IMG/VR virus record: IMGVR_UViG_2537562191_000063
Direction: 5' to 3' (one strand)
Origin: a virus
Lineage: Duplodnaviria > Heunggongvirae > Uroviricota > Caudoviricetes
DNA: 12,608 nucleotides
A model generated the notes under the pieces. The model did no database searches, was not told the DNA's origin, and saw only the letters and a program-made list of their open reading frames with translations. The position numbers and the translations under genes are program-made. Each line of letters begins with the position of its first letter. Position 1 is the stretch's first letter. This document shows positions 1-7,126 of the stretch, piece by piece.

Positions 1-288
1 ATAAGCGGAAGCCTGGCGAAGGATATCGTTACTGCGGCGCAGTTCACGATTTTCACGTTCCAGCTCTTTCAGACGCTGACGTTCAGCGCTGGTGAGCCCA
101 CCATCACCGCCCCCGGTATCCCGCTCATGCTGGCGAACCCAGACACGCAGAGTCTCCGGCGTACAGCCAATCTTTGGGGCAATGGAACAAATTGCCGCCC
201 ACTGTGAGTCATATTCATCCTGACTTTCCAGAACCATACGAATCGCCCGCTGACGGACTTCGGGGGAAAAACGAGTATTTTTAGTCAT
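1..288 (-). CDS. IS3-family transposase OrfA (HTH subunit), N-terminal 96 codons; C-terminus off-window
   Basis: Minus-strand ATG at 288-286 preceded by GAGG; translation [64 protein letters not shown]...[16 protein letters not shown] matches my recollection of IS629/IS1203 OrfA. Not in the ORF track because it is open at the window edge. Confidence 0.85.
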
Positions 289-342
289 CCTGTTTACCTC
301 TTTCTCAGGGAGTTTAGTCTCCAGGATTTCCGGGGCGGTTCA
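1..342 (-). mobile_element. IS3-family insertion sequence (IS629/IS1203-like), partial; one terminus at 342
   Basis: Minus-strand 331-342 reads TGAACCGCCCCG, an IS3-family terminal inverted repeat ending in TG/CA, followed inward by the OrfA gene. The rest of the element lies beyond the window start. Confidence 0.8.
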
Positions 343-507
343 CGTCGTTATACAATTCAATAACTGGCTCAATTATTTTTCCGATTATCCAGACTAGGAT
401 TAACGGGGATATCGGTATCATCAACACGATAAACAGAATGAGAAACAGAAATTCTGTTGTTCTACTCTTTCGCGGATATTTTTTCTAAATAATGTGACCA
501 TTCATTA

Positions 508-523
508 CCGCCCTTTCGGGCGG
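508..523 (-). terminator. GC-rich hairpin (CCGCCC-tttc-GGGCGG) just downstream of the 70-aa gene; weak U-tract
   Basis: Perfect 6-bp GC stem with 4-nt loop, 11 nt beyond the stop at 534-536. On the minus strand it is followed by TAATGAAT, so the U-tract is poor. Confidence 0.35.
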
Positions 524-533
524 CCTCCTGACA

Positions 534-746
534 TTAATCGTTGTGATAACTCATAGCTTCATTTGCAGCATCAACTGGATCAACCTCCCTCCAGCAATAA
601 TTTGGGTCGGCTCCTTCAGGCGTCCACGGTTCTAATTCATTTTTTGCCGCATTCTCATCGCCAGTAATTTTAAAAATCTGCTCAGAGAATTTTCTTGCCC
701 ACTCGTTATATTTTTCCGCATTAATGGCTTTCTGTGTATTTAACAT
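534..746 (-). CDS. hypothetical small protein (70 aa)
   Basis: ORF with ATG at 746-744, GGAGG 8 nt upstream, and an AT-rich putative promoter region at 747-851. No family recognised. Confidence 0.55.
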   Translation of the reverse strand: MLNTQKAINAEKYNEWARKFSEQIFKITGDENAAKNELEPWTPEGADPNYCWREVDPVDAANEAMSYHND

Positions 747-851
747 AAATATACCTCCAGTTAAGGATTAAATTTTATTTACAGTGCTGAACTTAATTAT
801 TCAGATTTGGATTATGCTTTCTCTTCACGAAGTTCCGATTGTTAATTTGGC

Positions 852-1274
852 TCACAACAGCACCTTCTGAAAATTACCCTGATAGAAAGCCAGTACACGC
901 TGCATAGCTTCGCTCTTCCGGCACTCGCTACAGATTATGTTCAGACGCCTGTCGTAGCGGCGTATTTCTCCGTCTGGTAATGACCAGATAAGATCCGGAT
1001 CAACCACAACCGGTTTCTTCACCTTTGCCCTTGATAGTTTTTTGCGGGCGTTTTGCCAGTCTTTACGCGCCTGCTCAGACGGGAATAATCCGTAGCCTGA
1101 ATTGTAAACATCACCACTGGCGACCAGTTCTCTGGCGAGAGTGCTTATGTAATACCTTGATGCACCGGTTTTAGCCTCCAGAGCCCGTAACGTCTCGCGA
1201 CCGCTCAGACGTACAAGTTCAACAACCTGCCCTTTAATTTTTTCCCGCTCTTCTGGTGTAAATACTTTTGCCAT
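852..1274 (-). CDS. hypothetical protein, possible HTH DNA-binding (140 aa from the ATG at 1274)
   Basis: The ORF is open from 1289, but the ATG at 1274-1272 has GGAGG 5-6 nt upstream and lies after the upstream gene's stop (1290-1292). Segment TLRALEAKTGASRYYISTLARELV looks HTH-like; a C-terminal CSEC motif is present. Confidence 0.6.
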   Translation of the reverse strand: MAKVFTPEEREKIKGQVVELVRLSGRETLRALEAKTGASRYYISTLARELVASGDVYNSGYGLFPSEQARKDWQNARKKLSRAKVKKPVVVDPDLIWSLPDGEIRRYDRRLNIICSECRKSEAMQRVLAFYQGNFQKVLL

Positions 1275-1289
1275 AGGTGCCTCCGGCAA

Positions 1290-2051
1290 TCACTTTTCCG
1301 ACACAATACGACTGGAGGAATCGAAAATCTGTCGAACAATATCCCGGTGCTTGTTCAGCTCCCGCAGCGCGGCGCAGACTCGCTCCCACTTCTGGACATG
1401 ATTTTTCGCCCGACGCAGTTCGCGGTTTGCCATATGCAGCGATGGTAAAACCAGGTCATCCGCTCGCGTTTCAGTAAACGATGGCAGCGACTGCACAATG
1501 TCCGCCACCGTTTCTGTTTTAATATCTTCCTGTGTTGCAGCCTCCTGTACTGGTAACGCAACACCTGTGGGCTGAGGAAAGGCCTTACCATCAGTTTCCG
1601 CTACCGATGCTGCTTTCGGCTCTGCTGGTAAATTATCGCCCGGTATGCAGTAACGAAATTTACCGTTCTGGTTTACGCGAATCAGGCGTCCTTTGCTGAT
1701 AGCCATTGCCAGCGTTGAAGCTACTTTGCGTGATGTGGTACCGAACAATGTAGCCAACTCATCCGCCGTTTGTGGGCCACGTTGTTCAATCGTCGCGGTT
1801 AAATCGCACTCTGAGATTTTCGCTACTGTTGCCATGGTGGTTTCTTCCGGCAGCTCTGCCGGCGCTGGCTGTTCCTGCTGAACGTTGTTATCAGCCACGC
1901 GCCAGGTGTATACGCTTTTATCAACGAAGCCAGCCTTTTTCAGTTCCCACAGCTCGTTCAGCACTTCTTCTCGACTGATATCAAGTCGCGTAGCCAGTTC
2001 TACCGACGTGGCTTTTCCCATCGCTTTCAGTGCGTCAAAAACGGTCTCCAT
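1290..2051 (-). CDS. hypothetical protein with two predicted winged-helix-like segments (253 aa)
   Basis: The track ORF extends to 2102, but the ATG at 2051-2049 has GGGAGG upstream and follows the ydaV stop (2074-2076). Starts [42 protein letters not shown]. Position after the DnaC-like gene suggests the intact version of a gene decayed in K-12 Rac; not verified. Confidence 0.6.
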
Positions 2052-2073
2052 TAAAATTTCCTCCCGGTAAAAA

Positions 2074-2820
2074 TTACTTCTCAATACCTGGCTGACCAAC
2101 ATTCGGGCGCCAGCTCTCCCAGTTAAAATTCACCCAGCGCCCGCCGTTCATGGTCATGCGATCCATAATCCGCTCGCCGAGCAATGTTTTCATGGCCTCA
2201 TAGTTCAGGTTTGTCAGCATCCCCACGCTGCGCATTGACGCTGTCCGGCGATCAACAATCTGGTGCAGTACCACCTGCTCGTTTTTCGTCTCGCGCTGAA
2301 TACCAATTTCATCAAGAACCAGCAGATCAACTTCGCACAGTTCCCGCAAAAATTTTTCGCCTGACTGCCCGTCGTCATAGCTGGCGTGCAGGGCGCTCAT
2401 AACATCAGCCACGGTAACCACAATCACTGTCTGGCCATCTTTCAGCAGGCGATTCCCGATAGCCGCCGCCAGATGGTTTTTTCCGGTACCAGGTTTTCCG
2501 CTGAACGCGAAATTTGTGCATCCGGTAACCAGTTCGTCAGCGATAGATTTCGCCTGACTCAACGCGTATCGCTGGCCGTCGTTCTGCACCTGGTAATTCG
2601 CAAACGAGCATTTGCGGTGCAACGGCTGTATGCCGGAGCGATTCAGGATTTTTTCCACCCGCAACTGACGATTCTGACGGTTGATCTCCTCACAACGTTT
2701 CTGGCCTTCTGCAAGTTGCCACTCGCGCCACTCCGCCACCGTCCTGAATGGCGCGGTTACATGTGGCGGGGCCAGTCTGCGGATACGTTCCAGAACGCCG
2801 CCTGTCGCAATATTTTTCAT
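2074..2820 (-). CDS. ydaV: DnaC/IstB-like AAA+ helicase loader, prophage replication protein (248 aa)
   Basis: Walker [14 protein letters not shown] and Walker [10 protein letters not shown] are present. Length matches my recollection of Rac YdaV (248 aa). Sits 6 nt downstream of ydaU. Confidence 0.85.
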
Positions 2821-2826
2821 GGTCTG

Positions 2827-3615
2827 TTACCCCCTGAAGCCTGGCGGGATCGCACTGTCCGGAAACGAGACGGTGTTAATCTGTCGGAGCAACGTCTCTG
2901 GCCGAACACCTTTCGGCGCGAACAAGCCCTGGTATTCATTGGCGATGCTGTGTCGAATCACCTGCTCAGGTGAAAAACCCTGCTGGCGGAATTTTTCCAG
3001 CTCCCGTATCGCCCCGTTAGCGCCCTGCTCCGTTCGAATCGGTTTTCGCAATGCCTGCCTGAACTGAACCCACTCATGCCAGAGTGTTTCCGGCAACCAG
3101 TCAGGCAGCTCGATAGCCTCCGGTTCGAATTTTTTAGACGCTCGTTTTTGGCGAGGGGGATTTAGGGGGAGATAAGTATTTATATCTTCCTCTTTCTCTT
3201 CCTCTGGTAACGCTTTTTGATCCGTTTTTGTAACGCTGGCAGCGTTACCTTTTCGTTTCAGTTCTCGTATTTTTGTTACTCTCTCGTTTGTAACCGCCCG
3301 TTTTTTAGAGCTTTTCCCGTTATGGCGCTCAAAGTTAGGAAGCGACAACACACCATTAGTTTCGACCAGCCATCCAACCTGAATTAACGCATCAGCAAAA
3401 CCAGCCATAAAAGTGATGCGATCTATTGCACTTTTTGTAACGCCGCGAGCGTTACACTCTGCGTTACCGTCTATCATTTGTTGATCCGCCCATGCCCAGA
3501 AGCGAATGACTTTCCCTAATGCGGCATCTGGATCAATATTCAGAATCTCAGCAAGCCTGAATATTTCCGGCTTATCCGGCGTAATAACTTCGAGCTTTAT
3601 CCAGTTTGAAGCCAT
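2827..3615 (-). CDS. ydaU: prophage replication-module protein, YdaU-like (262 aa)
   Basis: ATG at 3615-3613 with AGGTGA upstream; an in-frame TGA 3 codons upstream rules out an N-terminal extension. Immediately precedes the DnaC-like gene, in the position of lambda O relative to P. Contains the palindromic repeats described in findings. Confidence 0.7.
   Translation of the reverse strand: MASNWIKLEVITPDKPEIFRLAEILNIDPDAALGKVIRFWAWADQQMIDGNAECNARGVTKSAIDRITFMAGFADALIQVGWLVETNGVLSLPNFERHNGKSSKKRAVTNERVTKIRELKRKGNAASVTKTDQKALPEEEKEEDINTYLPLNPPRQKRASKKFEPEAIELPDWLPETLWHEWVQFRQALRKPIRTEQGANGAIRELEKFRQQGFSPEQVIRHSIANEYQGLFAPKGVRPETLLRQINTVSFPDSAIPPGFRG
3230..3248. repeat. 19-bp palindrome GTAACGCTGGCAGCGTTAC (copy 1 of 3), inside ydaU
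   Basis: Near-perfect dyad read directly from the sequence. An extra half-site GTAACGC lies at 3208-3214. Confidence 0.9.
3437..3455. repeat. 19-bp palindrome GTAACGCCGCGAGCGTTAC (copy 2 of 3), inside ydaU
   Basis: Dyad read directly from the sequence. An extra half-site GCGTTAC lies at 3461-3467. Confidence 0.9.
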
Positions 3616-3628
3616 TTGTTTTCACCTT

Positions 3629-3647
3629 GTAACGCTCGCAGCGTTAC
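3629..3647. repeat. 19-bp palindrome GTAACGCTCGCAGCGTTAC (copy 3 of 3), in the ydaT-ydaU intergenic region 14 nt upstream of the ydaU start
   Basis: Perfect 8-bp arms (GTAACGCT / AGCGTTAC) read directly from the sequence; lies immediately upstream of the ydaU ribosome-binding site. Confidence 0.9.
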
Positions 3648-3657
3648 ATTTAACTGA

Positions 3658-3679
3658 TACCGAACAAAACAGTTCGGTA
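3658..3679 (-). other. 8-bp inverted repeat / hairpin (TACCGAAC-aaaaca-GTTCGGTA) between ydaT and ydaU
   Basis: Perfect 8-bp stem with 6-nt loop, 14 nt after the ydaT stop. No U-tract follows on either strand. Confidence 0.5.
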
Positions 3680-3692
3680 CGATTAATTTCAA

Positions 3693-4115
3693 TCAATGCA
3701 CTACGACAGAATCGCTAGGAGAACCGCCGCCGCTGAAATGTGCTTTACGGTAAACGGCCTGGACTGCATCATCATGCGCATCAATTGCCGTACTCAGTGC
3801 ATCCTGTGCCGCCAGTAATGCACGGCGTTCCAGGGTATCGAAGATGCAGAGTCGGTGACGCAGCTCGCGAGGAAGAATTGCCAGAACCGCAGGGATCAGT
3901 TTCTGAATTTTTTCCCTTTGCGCATTCGTTTCACCTTTCAACCAACGATGATAGATATTCTGCTGATTGTTCCAGTCCTTGCCTGGTACCAGGGGCAATT
4001 CGCCGCCCCCCTGGCGCAGATATTCTTCAGTAATTGCGTTAGCGACCCACGCCTGCCCTTTTTCGGCTGCCAGGGCTAACAACACTGATTCGATGTGCTC
4101 ATGCTTGATTTTCAT
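3693..4115 (-). CDS. ydaT: YdaT-like protein (140 aa), reported toxic/CII-like partner of YdaS
   Basis: ATG at 4115-4113 with GGGAG upstream; start overlaps the ydaS stop (ATGA), implying translational coupling. Length and sequence (MKIKHEHIESVLLALAAEKGQAWVANAITEEY...) match my recollection of Rac YdaT. Confidence 0.8.
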   Translation of the reverse strand: MKIKHEHIESVLLALAAEKGQAWVANAITEEYLRQGGGELPLVPGKDWNNQQNIYHRWLKGETNAQREKIQKLIPAVLAILPRELRHRLCIFDTLERRALLAAQDALSTAIDAHDDAVQAVYRKAHFSGGGSPSDSVVVH

Positions 4116-4366
4116 GAATCAACTCCCATCAGCTTTTTCGTAGTAGTTTTATTTCTGCCAATAGTTAAAATTGCATCGGCAGAAAATAATCCGTTTGATG
4201 CATGAGCGATTTTTTCAGCGTAATTTGTTTCGCCGGTATATTCTGTGCGAGGCAATTTACCGTTATCCATCCATTTGTAGATTGCTCTTTGGCTGACACC
4301 ACAAACGTCGGCCACAACAGAAACGCGAACAGTTTTGATTACATCTTCAAGTGTTTTCTGGTTCAT
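4112..4366 (-). CDS. ydaS: Cro-like HTH protein, YdaS family (84 aa from the ATG at 4366; the ORF is open from 4438)
   Basis: The internal ATG at 4366-4364 has GAGGGTGA 5-6 nt upstream, whereas the ATG at 4438 has none. Segment VADVCGVSQRAIYKWMDNGKLP is HTH-like. Divergent from the repressor gene. Confidence 0.7.
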   Translation of the reverse strand: MNQKTLEDVIKTVRVSVVADVCGVSQRAIYKWMDNGKLPRTEYTGETNYAEKIAHASNGLFSADAILTIGRNKTTTKKLMGVDS

Positions 4367-4380
4367 ATCACCCTCACAAT

Positions 4381-4453
4381 GTGAACTTTGAGTACATGCT
4401 ATAACAGAACTGACAGTACATTCAAGAGCGAATATCATTGAACTTATGGTTCA
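4381..4453. promoter_or_regulatory. divergent promoter/operator region (OR-like) between ydaS and the repressor gene
   Basis: Direct repeats AGTACAT at 4391-4397 and 4415-4421 (24 bp apart); TGAACTT at 4382-4388 and 4439-4445; inverted repeat TGAAC-ttatg-GTTCA (4439-4453) centred on the repressor ATG. Confidence 0.55.
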
Positions 4454-4865
4454 TGAAGATAAAGCGCGTAAAGAGTTCGCCAGTAGGCTTGCGCTAGCCT
4501 GTGAAAACGCTGGTTATGAACAACATGGAAGGCAGGCAGAAATTGCCCGTCGAATGAAATTAACACCAAAAGCGGTTAGCAAATGGTTTAATGGTGAAAC
4601 AATTCCTCGCCGAGAGAAATTAAGGGAATTAGCAACACTCATTGGAACAACACCAACCTATCTTTTGGGAGAGGATACAGAAGAAAGTGGACAGATACGT
4701 TTCTATCAGGAGTTAAATCCAAGACAAAAAATCATCATTGACCTTCTGGACGAGCTCCCTGACAGTGAGACAGATGAACTTTTAAAAACTCTTGAGGAGA
4801 AAAAACAGAAGTACAATGCAATTTACGAAGAGTTAGCACGAAAGAAAAAACAAAAAGCCTCTTAA
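4446..4865 (+). CDS. racR: XRE/CI-type prophage repressor (139 aa), RacR-like
   Basis: N-terminal HTH (GRQAEIARRMKLTPKAVSKWFNGETIP), divergent from the Cro-like gene, charged C-terminus. No SD upstream of the ATG at 4446, so the transcript may be leaderless or use a short leader. My recollection of K-12 RacR is 158 aa, so the start or allele may differ. Confidence 0.7.
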   Translation: MVHEDKARKEFASRLALACENAGYEQHGRQAEIARRMKLTPKAVSKWFNGETIPRREKLRELATLIGTTPTYLLGEDTEESGQIRFYQELNPRQKIIIDLLDELPDSETDELLKTLEEKKQKYNAIYEELARKKKQKAS

Positions 4866-4934
4866 ACCAGCATAAATCCGGTAGCGTCCCCCTCCGGGTT
4901 TGTGCTTCACTTTATCCCGTCTCATTTTTTTATA

Positions 4935-4990
4935 CATAAAATGTACTTAAAGTACTTTACAATGATGAACACAAAGTACATTATATACCT
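4935..4990 (+). promoter_or_regulatory. operator/promoter-like region (OL/PL-like) downstream of the repressor
   Basis: Same motif as at 4391/4415: 13-bp palindrome GTACTTAAAGTAC (4943-4955), inverted ATGTACT (4941-4947), AGTACT (4951-4956) and AGTACAT (4975-4981), again 24 bp apart. TTTACA at 4956-4961 could serve as a -35 element, followed by an AT-rich -10 candidate near 4980-4987. Confidence 0.5.
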
Positions 4991-5152
4991 ACCAACCCAC
5001 CCCGCCCCACAGAACGCCGGGCAATACTTCGAGTTACCAGGCAGTGGTCAGGGGTTAAGTAGCCAGCCCGAGGCGTATGAACATGACGGCGGGATTCAAA
5101 TTTTGCAGTGCAGCAGTTAGTTCCGCCACCCGGCGTTAAGGGGATAGATAAG

Positions 5153-5287
5153 ATGGTGCATTACGAAGTAGTTCAGTATTTGATGGATTGTTGCGGTATC
5201 ACTTACAACCAGGCTGTGCAGGCTTTACGCAGCAACGACTGGGATCTCTGGCAGGCAGAAGTCGCTATACGTAGCAACAAGATGTGA
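5153..5287 (+). CDS. ydaG: small prophage protein YdaG (44 aa)
   Basis: ATG at 5153 with AAGGGGA upstream; translation MVHYEVVQYLMDCCGITYNQAVQALRSNDWDLWQAEVAIRSNKM. Length matches recollected Rac YdaG. Below the ORF-track size cutoff. Confidence 0.7.
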   Translation: MVHYEVVQYLMDCCGITYNQAVQALRSNDWDLWQAEVAIRSNKM

Positions 5288-5297
5288 GATTCGCAAA

Positions 5298-5453
5298 ATG
5301 CAAAAAATCGACCTCGGCAACAACGAATCCCTGGTGTGCGGCGTGTTCCCCAACCAGGATGGAACGTTCACTGCCATGACGTATACCAAAAGCAAAACAT
5401 TTAAAACCGAAACTGGTGCGCGCCGATGGTTGGAGAAGCACACAGTAAGCTAA
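5298..5453 (+). CDS. ydaF: small prophage protein YdaF (51 aa)
   Basis: ATG at 5298; translation MQKIDLGNNESLVCGVFPNQDGTFTAMTYTKSKTFKTETGARRWLEKHTVS. Length matches recollected Rac YdaF. Its 3' end overlaps the convergent sieB 3' end by 4 nt. Confidence 0.7.
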   Translation: MQKIDLGNNESLVCGVFPNQDGTFTAMTYTKSKTFKTETGARRWLEKHTVS

Positions 5454-5938
5454 CGATTAAAACGTCTACTCCTGCTGTTCCAGAATAACTTCATAAAATG
5501 GGAGTATTTTTCGGTGACGAGATAATAAGAACAGTTTGCGCTATCACTCTGATGTTGAATGATGCCCTTCCGTTCTAATTTTTTCATAACCGGGTTACGG
5601 CAAGGAGAAGTGATAATAAGATTTCCTGTTTTAAGGAAATCTTTAAATACAGCGATTTCTTTCTCAGATAAACGAAGCAATACTCGTTGCTCTGGTAGTA
5701 ATGAATAATGCTTTTGAATATGTGCTCGCAATCTTGAGAAGGAAATGGCGACCACGAAAGAAAAGGCAAAAACGATAATCTGAAAGAGCCAAGGTATTTC
5801 AGTATAAGCATTGAATGCGACAGTAAACTCTTTCGGTATCAGCCAGAGAGTGAGACCAAAAATGATAATCGTATACATAAGTCTTTCGAGTGGCTCGTTA
5901 GCAAAAAGTTTCAACAATGGAGTAAATACATCCAACAT
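5450..5938 (-). CDS. sieB: superinfection exclusion protein B (162 aa), membrane protein
   Basis: Start taken at the internal ATG 5938-5936 (MLDVFTPLLKLFANEPLERLMYTIIIFGLTLWLIP...), with GAGAG upstream, giving 162 aa as recalled for Rac SieB. Hydrophobic segments are present. The 41-codon upstream extension in the ORF track is rejected. Confidence 0.85.
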   Translation of the reverse strand: MLDVFTPLLKLFANEPLERLMYTIIIFGLTLWLIPKEFTVAFNAYTEIPWLFQIIVFAFSFVVAISFSRLRAHIQKHYSLLPEQRVLLRLSEKEIAVFKDFLKTGNLIITSPCRNPVMKKLERKGIIQHQSDSANCSYYLVTEKYSHFMKLFWNSRSRRFNR

Positions 5939-6156
5939 ATCAATAACTCTCAACTGTAAGGGTATTGAAATGTTAACACAAGCTCTCGCTGTAGGGGTAT
6001 AGCCGAGACCACCGAAGCCCGGAGGTGGTGAAATAAAACCGGGCACAACACGAAGGCGCATTTCCGATATCCATAAAGAGTCGGTCTTGTCTGTTAAATT
6101 TAAATGGTGGGAGTGCGCCTCCGGTTGTAAATAACGACATTGCTGTGTGTAGTCCT

Positions 6157-6204
6157 GGCGGCATCAGTTTTTTTCTTGAAGTTCGGCTGATGTCCGCCCT
6201 TTTT
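6157..6204 (+). terminator. candidate intrinsic terminator in the sieB-kilR spacer
   Basis: GGCGGCATCAG (6157-6167) pairs with CTGATGTCCGCC (6187-6198) as an 11-bp stem with one bulge; loop is 19 nt; followed by CTTTTTAAAG. On the minus strand no U-tract follows. Confidence 0.45.
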
Positions 6205-6379
6205 AAAGTGAATTTTGTGATGCGGTGAATGCGGCTAAGCGCACGTGGCACAGTTAAAAGTCATGTTAGTCCTTATTGGTTTGGGTGGGAAAGCCGACTG
6301 TAATTGTTAACTGGTTGCAGTCACCTGGAGGCACCAGGCACCGCATCAACAAAGTTCATTTGTAAAAATGGAGATAATT

Positions 6380-6601
6380 ATGATTGCACATCACTTCGGA
6401 ACTGATGAAATACCACGTCAGTGTGTGACTCCTGGCGATTATGTTCTTCATGAAGGCCGGACATATATTGCCTCGGCAAACAATATTAAAAAGCGAAAAC
6501 TATATATTCGTAACCTGACCACAAAAACATGCATTACTGACCGCATGATTAAAGTCTTCCTCGGTCGTGATGGTTTACCTGTAAAGGCGGAGTCATGGTG
6601 A
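6380..6601 (+). CDS. kilR: KilR, FtsZ-targeting cell-division inhibitor (73 aa)
   Basis: ATG at 6380 with GGAGA 7 nt upstream; [73 protein letters not shown] matches recollected KilR. Confidence 0.85.
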
Positions 6602-6771
6602 TGACTAAGAAAATAAAATGTGCTTACCACCTTTGCAAAAAAGACGTTGAAGAAAGCAAAGCTATTGAAAGAATGCTTCACTTCATGCACGGGATTTTAT
6701 CAAAAGACGAACCGAGAAAATATTGCAGTGAAGCTTGTGCCGAAAAAGACCAGATGGCACATGAACTTTAA
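6601..6771 (+). CDS. ydaE: YdaE (56 aa), Cys/His-rich small protein
   Basis: ATG at 6601 overlaps the kilR stop (TGATG); [56 protein letters not shown]. Below the ORF-track cutoff. Confidence 0.75.
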   Translation: MTKKIKCAYHLCKKDVEESKAIERMLHFMHGILSKDEPRKYCSEACAEKDQMAHEL

Positions 6772-6845
6772 TTAATTGACTATTCGAAACTGAATTTATG
6801 CCAGAAATGGCAGGTATTCGCTCAACCTTAATTAAGGAGAAAAAC

Positions 6846-7121
6846 ATGATTACCAATTATGAAGCCACTGTTGTAACTACCGATGACATTGTTCACGAGG
6901 TGAATCTGGAAGGAAAGCGCATTGGCTACGTAATTAAAACAGAAAATAAAGAAACCCCATTCACTGTGGTTGATATCGATGGTCCATCAGGCAACGTAAA
7001 AACACTTGATGAAGGTGTCAAAAAAATGTGCCTGGTGCATATCGGAAAGAATCTGCCCACAGAAAAAAAAGCCGAATTTCTGGCAACTCTAATTGCAATG
7101 AAATTAAAAGGTGAAATCTGA
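6846..7121 (+). CDS. racC: RacC (91 aa)
   Basis: ATG at 6846 with AAGGAG upstream; MITNYEATVVTTDDIVHEVNLEGKRIGYVIKTENKETPF... Length matches recollected RacC; the ORF-track start at 6798 is rejected. Confidence 0.85.
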   Translation: MITNYEATVVTTDDIVHEVNLEGKRIGYVIKTENKETPFTVVDIDGPSGNVKTLDEGVKKMCLVHIGKNLPTEKKAEFLATLIAMKLKGEI

Positions 7122-7126
7122 AAGAA

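Follow-up and report, generated by a model that had tools for sequence, protein, structure and literature searches.

The first lines of this stretch raise a simple question: what was interrupted at the point where a transposable element ends and a short hydrophobic reading frame begins, and was it the element that silenced it? The window, by which we mean the whole stretch of 12,608 nucleotides, opens inside the element. A first-pass annotation of the letters described an IS629-like element at the edge of a prophage, cutting a small ORF that might be the remnant of a membrane protein or of a small toxin. We conclude, with a probability of roughly 93%, that IS629/IS1203 lies in codon 54 of an already frameshifted DUF4014 gene in an Sp10-like prophage of E. 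coli O111:H8 strain 7-54 11A. The anatomy of the locus, the order of its events and their distribution among genomes are direct observations, with the coordinates collected in Table 1. The event itself is an ordinary one, and its two lesions, the IS and the frameshift of the pseudogene, already appear in the RefSeq annotation.

Table 1. Features at the left end of the window; L001 denotes the flanking sequence of record NZ_CP077574.1
Feature	Position in window	Strand	Details
IS629/IS1203, left end (342 of 1310 bp)	1-342	-	Remainder before the window start; L001 3033-4342 in NZ_CP077574.1; 100% match
Transposase orfA, 5' part	1-288 (ATG 288-286)	-	CDS end at L001 4288, equal to window 288
IS terminal inverted repeat, orfA-side end, 25 nt, imperfect	318-342		Closes in ...GGCGGTTCA
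Chimeric ORF	314-427	-	37 codons from GTG 427, 35 from ATG 421; DUF4014 residues 26-54, 8 IS residues (NRPGNPGD), stop
Target-site duplication CGT, 3 bp	343-345		Other copy at L001 3030-3032, beyond the window
DUF4014 (PF13198 / phrog_1832) pseudogene, 5' portion	343-501	-	Equivalent of residues 1-53; native start ATG 501-499
Frame-0 ORF after the frameshift	421-501	-	26-aa peptide MVTLFRKNIRERVEQQNFCFSFCLSC; only the first 7 residues native
T6 homopolymer (A6 on the coding strand)	479-484	-	Site of 1-nt deletion, from alignment with intact RM14723
Initiation region of the true start (putative function)	507-529	-	AGGAGG 524-529, hairpin 507-524 (RNAfold), then UAAUGA-AUG
Upstream neighbour, 70-aa hypothetical WP_000935420.1 (phrog_4659)	534-746	-	Intact, outside the event; fixes operon context

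The IS element and its insertion

Positions 1-900 of the window match, at 100% over their full length, the genome of a bovine faecal isolate, E. coli O111:H8 strain 7-54 11A (NZ_CP077574.1, from 2865418), and the sequence beyond the window start that the first-pass annotation had asked for could be taken from there. It contains the other end of the element. The two ends read TGAACCGCCCCGG.../...CCGGGGCGGTTCA and form imperfect inverted repeats of the type 5'-TG...CA-3', matching at 22 of the first 25 positions; compared with the opposite end, the repeat that closes at position 342, the terminus proposed from the letters alone, has 13 identical nucleotides, 3 mismatches and 9 further identical nucleotides. 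PGAP names the product 'IS3-like element IS1203 family transposase' and joins orfA and orfB into one CDS with a programmed frameshift, and the record also annotates an AL1L pseudoknot. The -1 frameshift between the two overlapping frames and the DDE transposase are taken from this record annotation, the window holding only the first 288 nt of orfA. Transcription of orfA runs in the direction of the interrupted phage gene, and the IS points the same way as the early-right operon.

The left flank ends in ...ATACCACGT and the right flank opens with CGTCGTTAT..., while IS-free genomes read ...ATACCACGTCGTTAT... and have ACGTCG at the unoccupied site, which identifies CGT as the duplicated target. 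When the IS and one copy of CGT were deleted in silico, the IS-free sequence was reproduced exactly, and over the 7,587 bp after excision there are 0 mismatches to strain E2863 and to Sp10 of O157:H7 Sakai. Three features assign the element to IS629/IS1203, namely a length of about 1310 bp with inverted repeats, the orfA/orfB frameshift (by annotation) and the 3-bp duplication. Target duplications of IS629 measure 3-4 bp, IS1203 is an IS629 isoform first described in O111, and the sites of IS629 in the prophages of O157:H7 are strain-specific (PMC3271280). The insertion resembles the IS629/IS1203 polymorphisms of EHEC prophages in length, ends, orfA/orfB frameshift, 3-bp duplication, choice of a lambdoid prophage as target and strain-specificity. 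It has no mechanistic difference from the known insertions; what sets it apart is its site, codon 54 of a DUF4014 pseudogene in an Sp10-like prophage, in one genome. Judged by its family, the element presumably reached this site through the usual transposition route of IS3-family elements.

Among the matches listed for window positions 1-900, the insertion junction occurs at 100% over the full length in 1 of 5,426 complete E. coli genomes, and the listing of matches per record should not hide a match of 900 nt. As a single genome carries the junction, the insertion is recent and strain-specific: it is real, clean and private to strain 7-54 11A. The exact 37-aa chimeric product has no record in other assemblies of a large assembly index, which is weak evidence for a private insertion because gene callers rarely call such ORFs. 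A scan of the IS and its flanks gave no convincing outward hybrid promoter or strong terminator, with counts at or below the shuffle expectation. Polarity of the IS on the downstream nin/Q-region genes is possible.

The interrupted DUF4014 gene

On the minus strand, the ATG at 421-419 opens a frame that begins MIPISPLILVWIIGKIIEPVIELYND and then passes into IS sequence, as first noticed. The frame extends upstream to GTG 427, and the nine IS-derived codons originally counted resolve into eight wholly IS-derived codons and one codon that straddles the junction, GTG 343-341, which by coincidence still encodes the native Val. With the IS removed, the frame continues as ...YNDVVWASFNTLHNKINPYKEN-stop, giving 47 aa that match PF13198 over positions 26-72 with 56.8 bits (E 3e-15). 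As present in the window, the fragment scores 21.4 bits (E 3e-4), just under the gathering score of 23.2 bits, and is therefore a fragment of a DUF4014 member and not an intact one. The search of the reconstructed ORF against protein families thus bore out the idea of a membrane-protein remnant interrupted by an IS: once frame-corrected and IS-excised, the product of 72 aa matches all positions of PF13198 (1-72 of 72) with 74.6 bits and E 8e-21, against a cut-off of 23.2 bits, and matches phrog_1832 with E 2.5e-38.

The insertion falls in codon 54 of 72. Beyond the IS, displaced by 1313 bp, stand the final 19 codons (VWASFNTLHNKINPYKEN), and the protein thereby loses precisely its best-conserved stretch, the 19 C-terminal residues. 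The locus also departs from an intact 72-codon gene ending in LHNKINPYK at its 5' end, where the frame is broken at A6: the frame of ATG 501 reads MVTLFRK... to a stop at 421-423, and the frame used from 421 is open further upstream (KKYPRKSRTTEFLFLILFIVL...). At window 314-501, and independently in IS-free genomes, PGAP reports a 'DUF4014 family protein, frameshifted'. From the 3' remnant, VWASFNTLHNKINPYKEN, it calls a 19-aa 'DUF4014 family protein' with a GTG start (WP_423826812.1, L001 2971-3030), which is an annotation artefact made by the insertion.

Intact relatives start at the upstream ATG equivalent to 501. In the window this AUG is separated from AGGAGG by a gap of 22 nt that is filled by a stable hairpin of 7 bp with a GAAA loop (GCCGCCC-GAAA-GGGCGGU), and the predicted fold may act as a hairpin-bridged Shine-Dalgarno sequence for AUG 501. 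Such 'split' Shine-Dalgarno sites are known from genes 38 and 25 of phage T4. Similarly, the GNRA hairpin here would bring AGGAGG to about 6 nt from the AUG, a likeness that goes no further than resemblance. The region 507-529 is identical in 4 of 4 aligned loci, so it offers no covariation. Ahead of ATG 421 and GTG 427 there is no purine-rich Shine-Dalgarno sequence, in agreement with the first reading; the sequence upstream of ATG 421 is TTCTGTTTATCGTGTTG. We infer that no protein is made from ATG 421.

A protein search returned 138 DUF4014 homologues, nearly all from E. coli, Salmonella or Shigella, and among those listed most have 72 aa and the start M[VTP]TLFRK[KEN]YPRKSR. The intact protein consists of a basic N-terminus (residues 1-17, net +5), a hydrophobic stretch of 24 residues (18-41, best 19-residue Kyte-Doolittle mean 3.0) and a tail of 31 residues, and across 21 family members the C-terminal LHNKINPYK is the invariant block. 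By the positive-inside rule it would be a single-pass (bitopic) inner-membrane protein with N-in/C-out topology. An AlphaFold2 model from the alignment of 21 sequences places helices at 14-28 and 31-66 with a break at prolines (mean pLDDT 80, pTM 0.38), and is compatible with a single-pass helical protein. The transmembrane look first ascribed to the ORF from 421 is only half borne out: the ORF carries just the last 14 residues of the 24-residue segment, its Met being residue 28.

Homologues are found in the accessory early regions of temperate enterobacterial phages, such as L0067 of 933W (NP_049467), gp46 of epsilon15 and gp26 of MG40. They share the length of 72 aa, the basic N-terminus, the one hydrophobic segment and LHNKINPYK. 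In 933W the gene lies between the Ea22-like genes and xis/int, as it does in the P22-like MG40, and in epsilon15 gp46 is near the right end. The copy studied here instead lies downstream of the replication genes, in a nin-like position, and not in the ea region, which has the recombination genes on one side and xis/int on the other; unlike the single ORFs of 933W, epsilon15 and MG40, it carries two lesions, the deletion of one A from A7 and the IS. Product names among the homologues include 'released from the phage upon host infection', which is also the label of PHROG 1832, 'acetyltransferase inhibitor' and 'sugar acetyltransferase inhibitor', and are borne by the records of 933W, Stx2 II, Min27, g341c, HK225, MG40 and ArgO145. 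A literature search gave no paper on DUF4014 and no support for the 'acetyltransferase inhibitor' or 'released from the phage' names, and the epsilon34 genome paper does not discuss its DUF4014 homologue. Because the search gave nothing relevant, we treat the names as unsupported; they appear to be propagated annotations.

Frame loss and the order of events

The first-pass annotation took the insertion as the event that broke the gene. Comparison with IS-free relatives, which it had proposed, does show an ORF spanning the insertion point, and it also reveals an older lesion. The intact allele of strain RM14723 (WP_000256993.1) has A7 and reads TTT AGA AAA AAA TAT CCG, encoding F R K K Y P. The A6 form is carried by all IS-free EHEC copies examined; these copies being already A6, the frameshift is older than the IS. 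Counted as exact matches in complete genomes only, the A6 81-mer is present in at least 269 E. coli genomes and the A7 82-mer in 18, counts that cannot tell one ancestral deletion from repeated slippage. Carriers of A6 include O157:H7 Sakai and EDL933, O26:H11, O103:H2 and O111:H8, and the DUF4014 copies in the Sp10-like prophages of O157, O111, O26 and O103 share one homopolymer frameshift. Several O111 (O111:H8, O111:H-) and O103 genomes hold A6 copies of DUF4014 at two places in the chromosome, which presumably belong to a pair of related prophages. By analogy, strain 7-54 11A may keep an IS-free A6 copy elsewhere.

A compensated allele speaks to the effect of the deletion. At the P0001 locus (GCA_037023045.1, L010 601-819), A6 is accompanied by an extra A nine nucleotides downstream, which brings the frame back with four residues altered (MVTLFRKNIREKSRTTEF...). 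As this second indel restores the frame, A6 is a genuine loss of frame, and a suppressible one. In protein P0116 a different out-of-frame stretch is read through before a return to frame. To judge from the sequences, the DUF4014 gene seems to gather indels in its 5' A-rich part.

Taken together, the favoured course of events has two steps. One A was lost from A7 at codons 6-8, so that translation from ATG 501 stops after 26 residues. Later, a recent and strain-specific second hit brought the 1310-bp IS into codon 54 and duplicated CGT. The ORF from 421 is the distal, out-of-frame part of the pseudogene, opened at an internal Met and continued into the IS.

Prophage context and competing readings

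An Sp10-like lambdoid prophage occupies the Rac/Sp10 attachment site beside ttcA, and the window covers the 12.6 kb of it nearest int. The gene order is intR, xisR, ralR, recT, recE, kilR, sieB, repressor/cro, ydaT, replication genes, DUF1627, DUF977, the 70-aa hypothetical and DUF4014. To the left of the IS come at least 30 kb more of prophage, which carry the 3' remnant of DUF4014, three small ORFs, two methyltransferases, Q/nin-like genes, tRNAs and genes for lysis, terminase, head and tail. In BLAST against the Rac prophage of MG1655, positions 4990-12608 match at 98.9%, 3695-4121 at 92.5% and 1602-3200 at 91.8%; the immunity region 4122-4989, positions 3201-3694 and everything left of 1602 are without match. 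The likeness to K-12 Rac thus covers the ttcA site, int-xis-ralR-recT-recE-kilR-sieB (98.9%) and, at about 92%, ydaT, ydaV and part of ydaW, the 1602-3200 block also taking in an adjoining part of ydaU. It ends at 1602 inside the ydaW/DUF1627 gene, which puts the limit about 1.26 kb rightward of the IS terminus. Nothing in K-12 Rac corresponds to window positions 1-1601; the K-12 prophage has its own deletion, which joins ydaW to rzpR, and therefore lacks a DUF4014 gene.

The same prophage holds a second copy of IS1203, 100% identical and in inverse orientation, 12.2 kb away (L004 15541-16850; NZ_CP077574.1 about 2850958-2852267). This copy splits the KilAC antirepressor gene and is flanked by a 3-bp duplication, AAC. 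An inverted pair of this kind could mediate inversion; the genes between the two copies keep the order and strand they have in Sp10, so none has occurred. The portal protein gene is annotated as frameshifted (L004 6073-8519). From the two IS insertions and the portal frameshift, the prophage is probably defective.

Against this background three other accounts of the locus can be weighed. The IS could mark a structural boundary, be it the end of the prophage, a deletion or inversion brought about by the IS, or the point of departure from Rac. A window that opens inside the IS is by itself compatible with a boundary, and the inverted second copy would supply a partner. We give this account no credence: both flanks are contiguous in IS-free genomes, the 3-bp duplication is clean with 0 mismatches over 7.6 kb, and neither the prophage edge nor the divergence from K-12 Rac that the first-pass annotation placed at the IS is found there, since at least 30 kb of prophage follow on the left and Rac homology already stops at 1602. 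The ORF from ATG 421 could also be an independent gene for a small hydrophobic protein or toxin, interrupted by the IS. In IS-free relatives the ORF does span the insertion point, with 47-49 codons from ATG 421 or GTG 427, some annotations call versions of 45-54 aa from internal codons (P0083, P0114), and toxicity is compatible with a family that lacks an assigned function. A stand-alone protein from either codon is nevertheless extremely unlikely, because neither has a Shine-Dalgarno sequence, the start lies in the membrane segment and the family has 72 aa with a start equivalent to ATG 501. A protein begun at residue 28 of 72 would keep 14 hydrophobic residues and lose the basic N-terminal anchor, and intact relatives use the upstream ATG, with AGGAGG 22 nt away unless the hairpin bridges the gap. 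The marks of a type I or small membrane toxin were sought as well: besides the missing ribosome-binding site at ATG 421, no RNA family of Rfam, and hence none for an antisense or antitoxin RNA, matched in window 1-1300 at E<=1, there was no PADLOC match, only noise far below the cut-offs in NCBIfam, and no paper in the literature searched. The label of small toxin therefore finds no support, and neither does a defence role in Rfam, PADLOC or NCBIfam.

The remaining account concerns the A6 allele itself. It holds that A6 is live, that -1 slippage on A_AAA_AAU or phase variation of the A tract still yields the 72-aa protein, and that the IS is the real loss of function. The heptamer, read as AGA-AAA-AAU, fits X_XXY_YYZ in frame with ATG 501, and a -1 shift on it would give MVTLFRKN-YPRKSRTTEF..., the native protein with K8N. 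In addition, the downstream frame is free of further stops in every copy examined, A6 is the commoner form (269 genomes against 18 with A7), and homopolymer tracts are classic contingency sites. Low-level -1 slippage could in this way leave A6 partly functional and make the IS the true inactivator. Several points weigh against it. By eye, neither a stimulatory hairpin or pseudoknot downstream nor a suitably spaced SD-like element upstream was seen. As an A-site codon, AAU slips poorly in E. coli next to AAG, and efficient transcriptional slippage calls for a longer run than A6. The homologues of 933W, epsilon15, MG40 and RM14723 are plain single ORFs, so a two-frame arrangement is not conserved, and in 933W the A run is interrupted (AGAAAAGAATAT). 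The A6 copies are near-identical, O111 and O157 agreeing at every position over 7.6 kb, and their open downstream frame is therefore no evidence of selection. In one lineage a second indel has mended the frame, an argument that A6 by itself does not suffice. We thus regard continued function of A6 as very unlikely, and the same small chance is all we allow to the fuller version, in which the allele of at least 269 complete genomes, mostly EHEC, is expressed at low level or phase-variably from the hairpin-bridged Shine-Dalgarno sequence. If it were true, strain 7-54 11A would be a natural mutant in which the IS has knocked out an accessory protein conserved in EHEC prophages; some of the database names hint that this protein might act on superinfection or on the modification of O-antigen.

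On the favoured reading, an insertion into a gene that had already lost its frame, the consequences are more modest. The names given to DUF4014 homologues and the 19-aa 'protein' called from the remnant call for caution as annotation artefacts. IS629/IS1203 polymorphisms in EHEC prophages are well documented and used in strain typing, and the insertion described here matters little beyond bookkeeping; its pair of empty and filled sites (CGT) could mark strain 7-54 11A.
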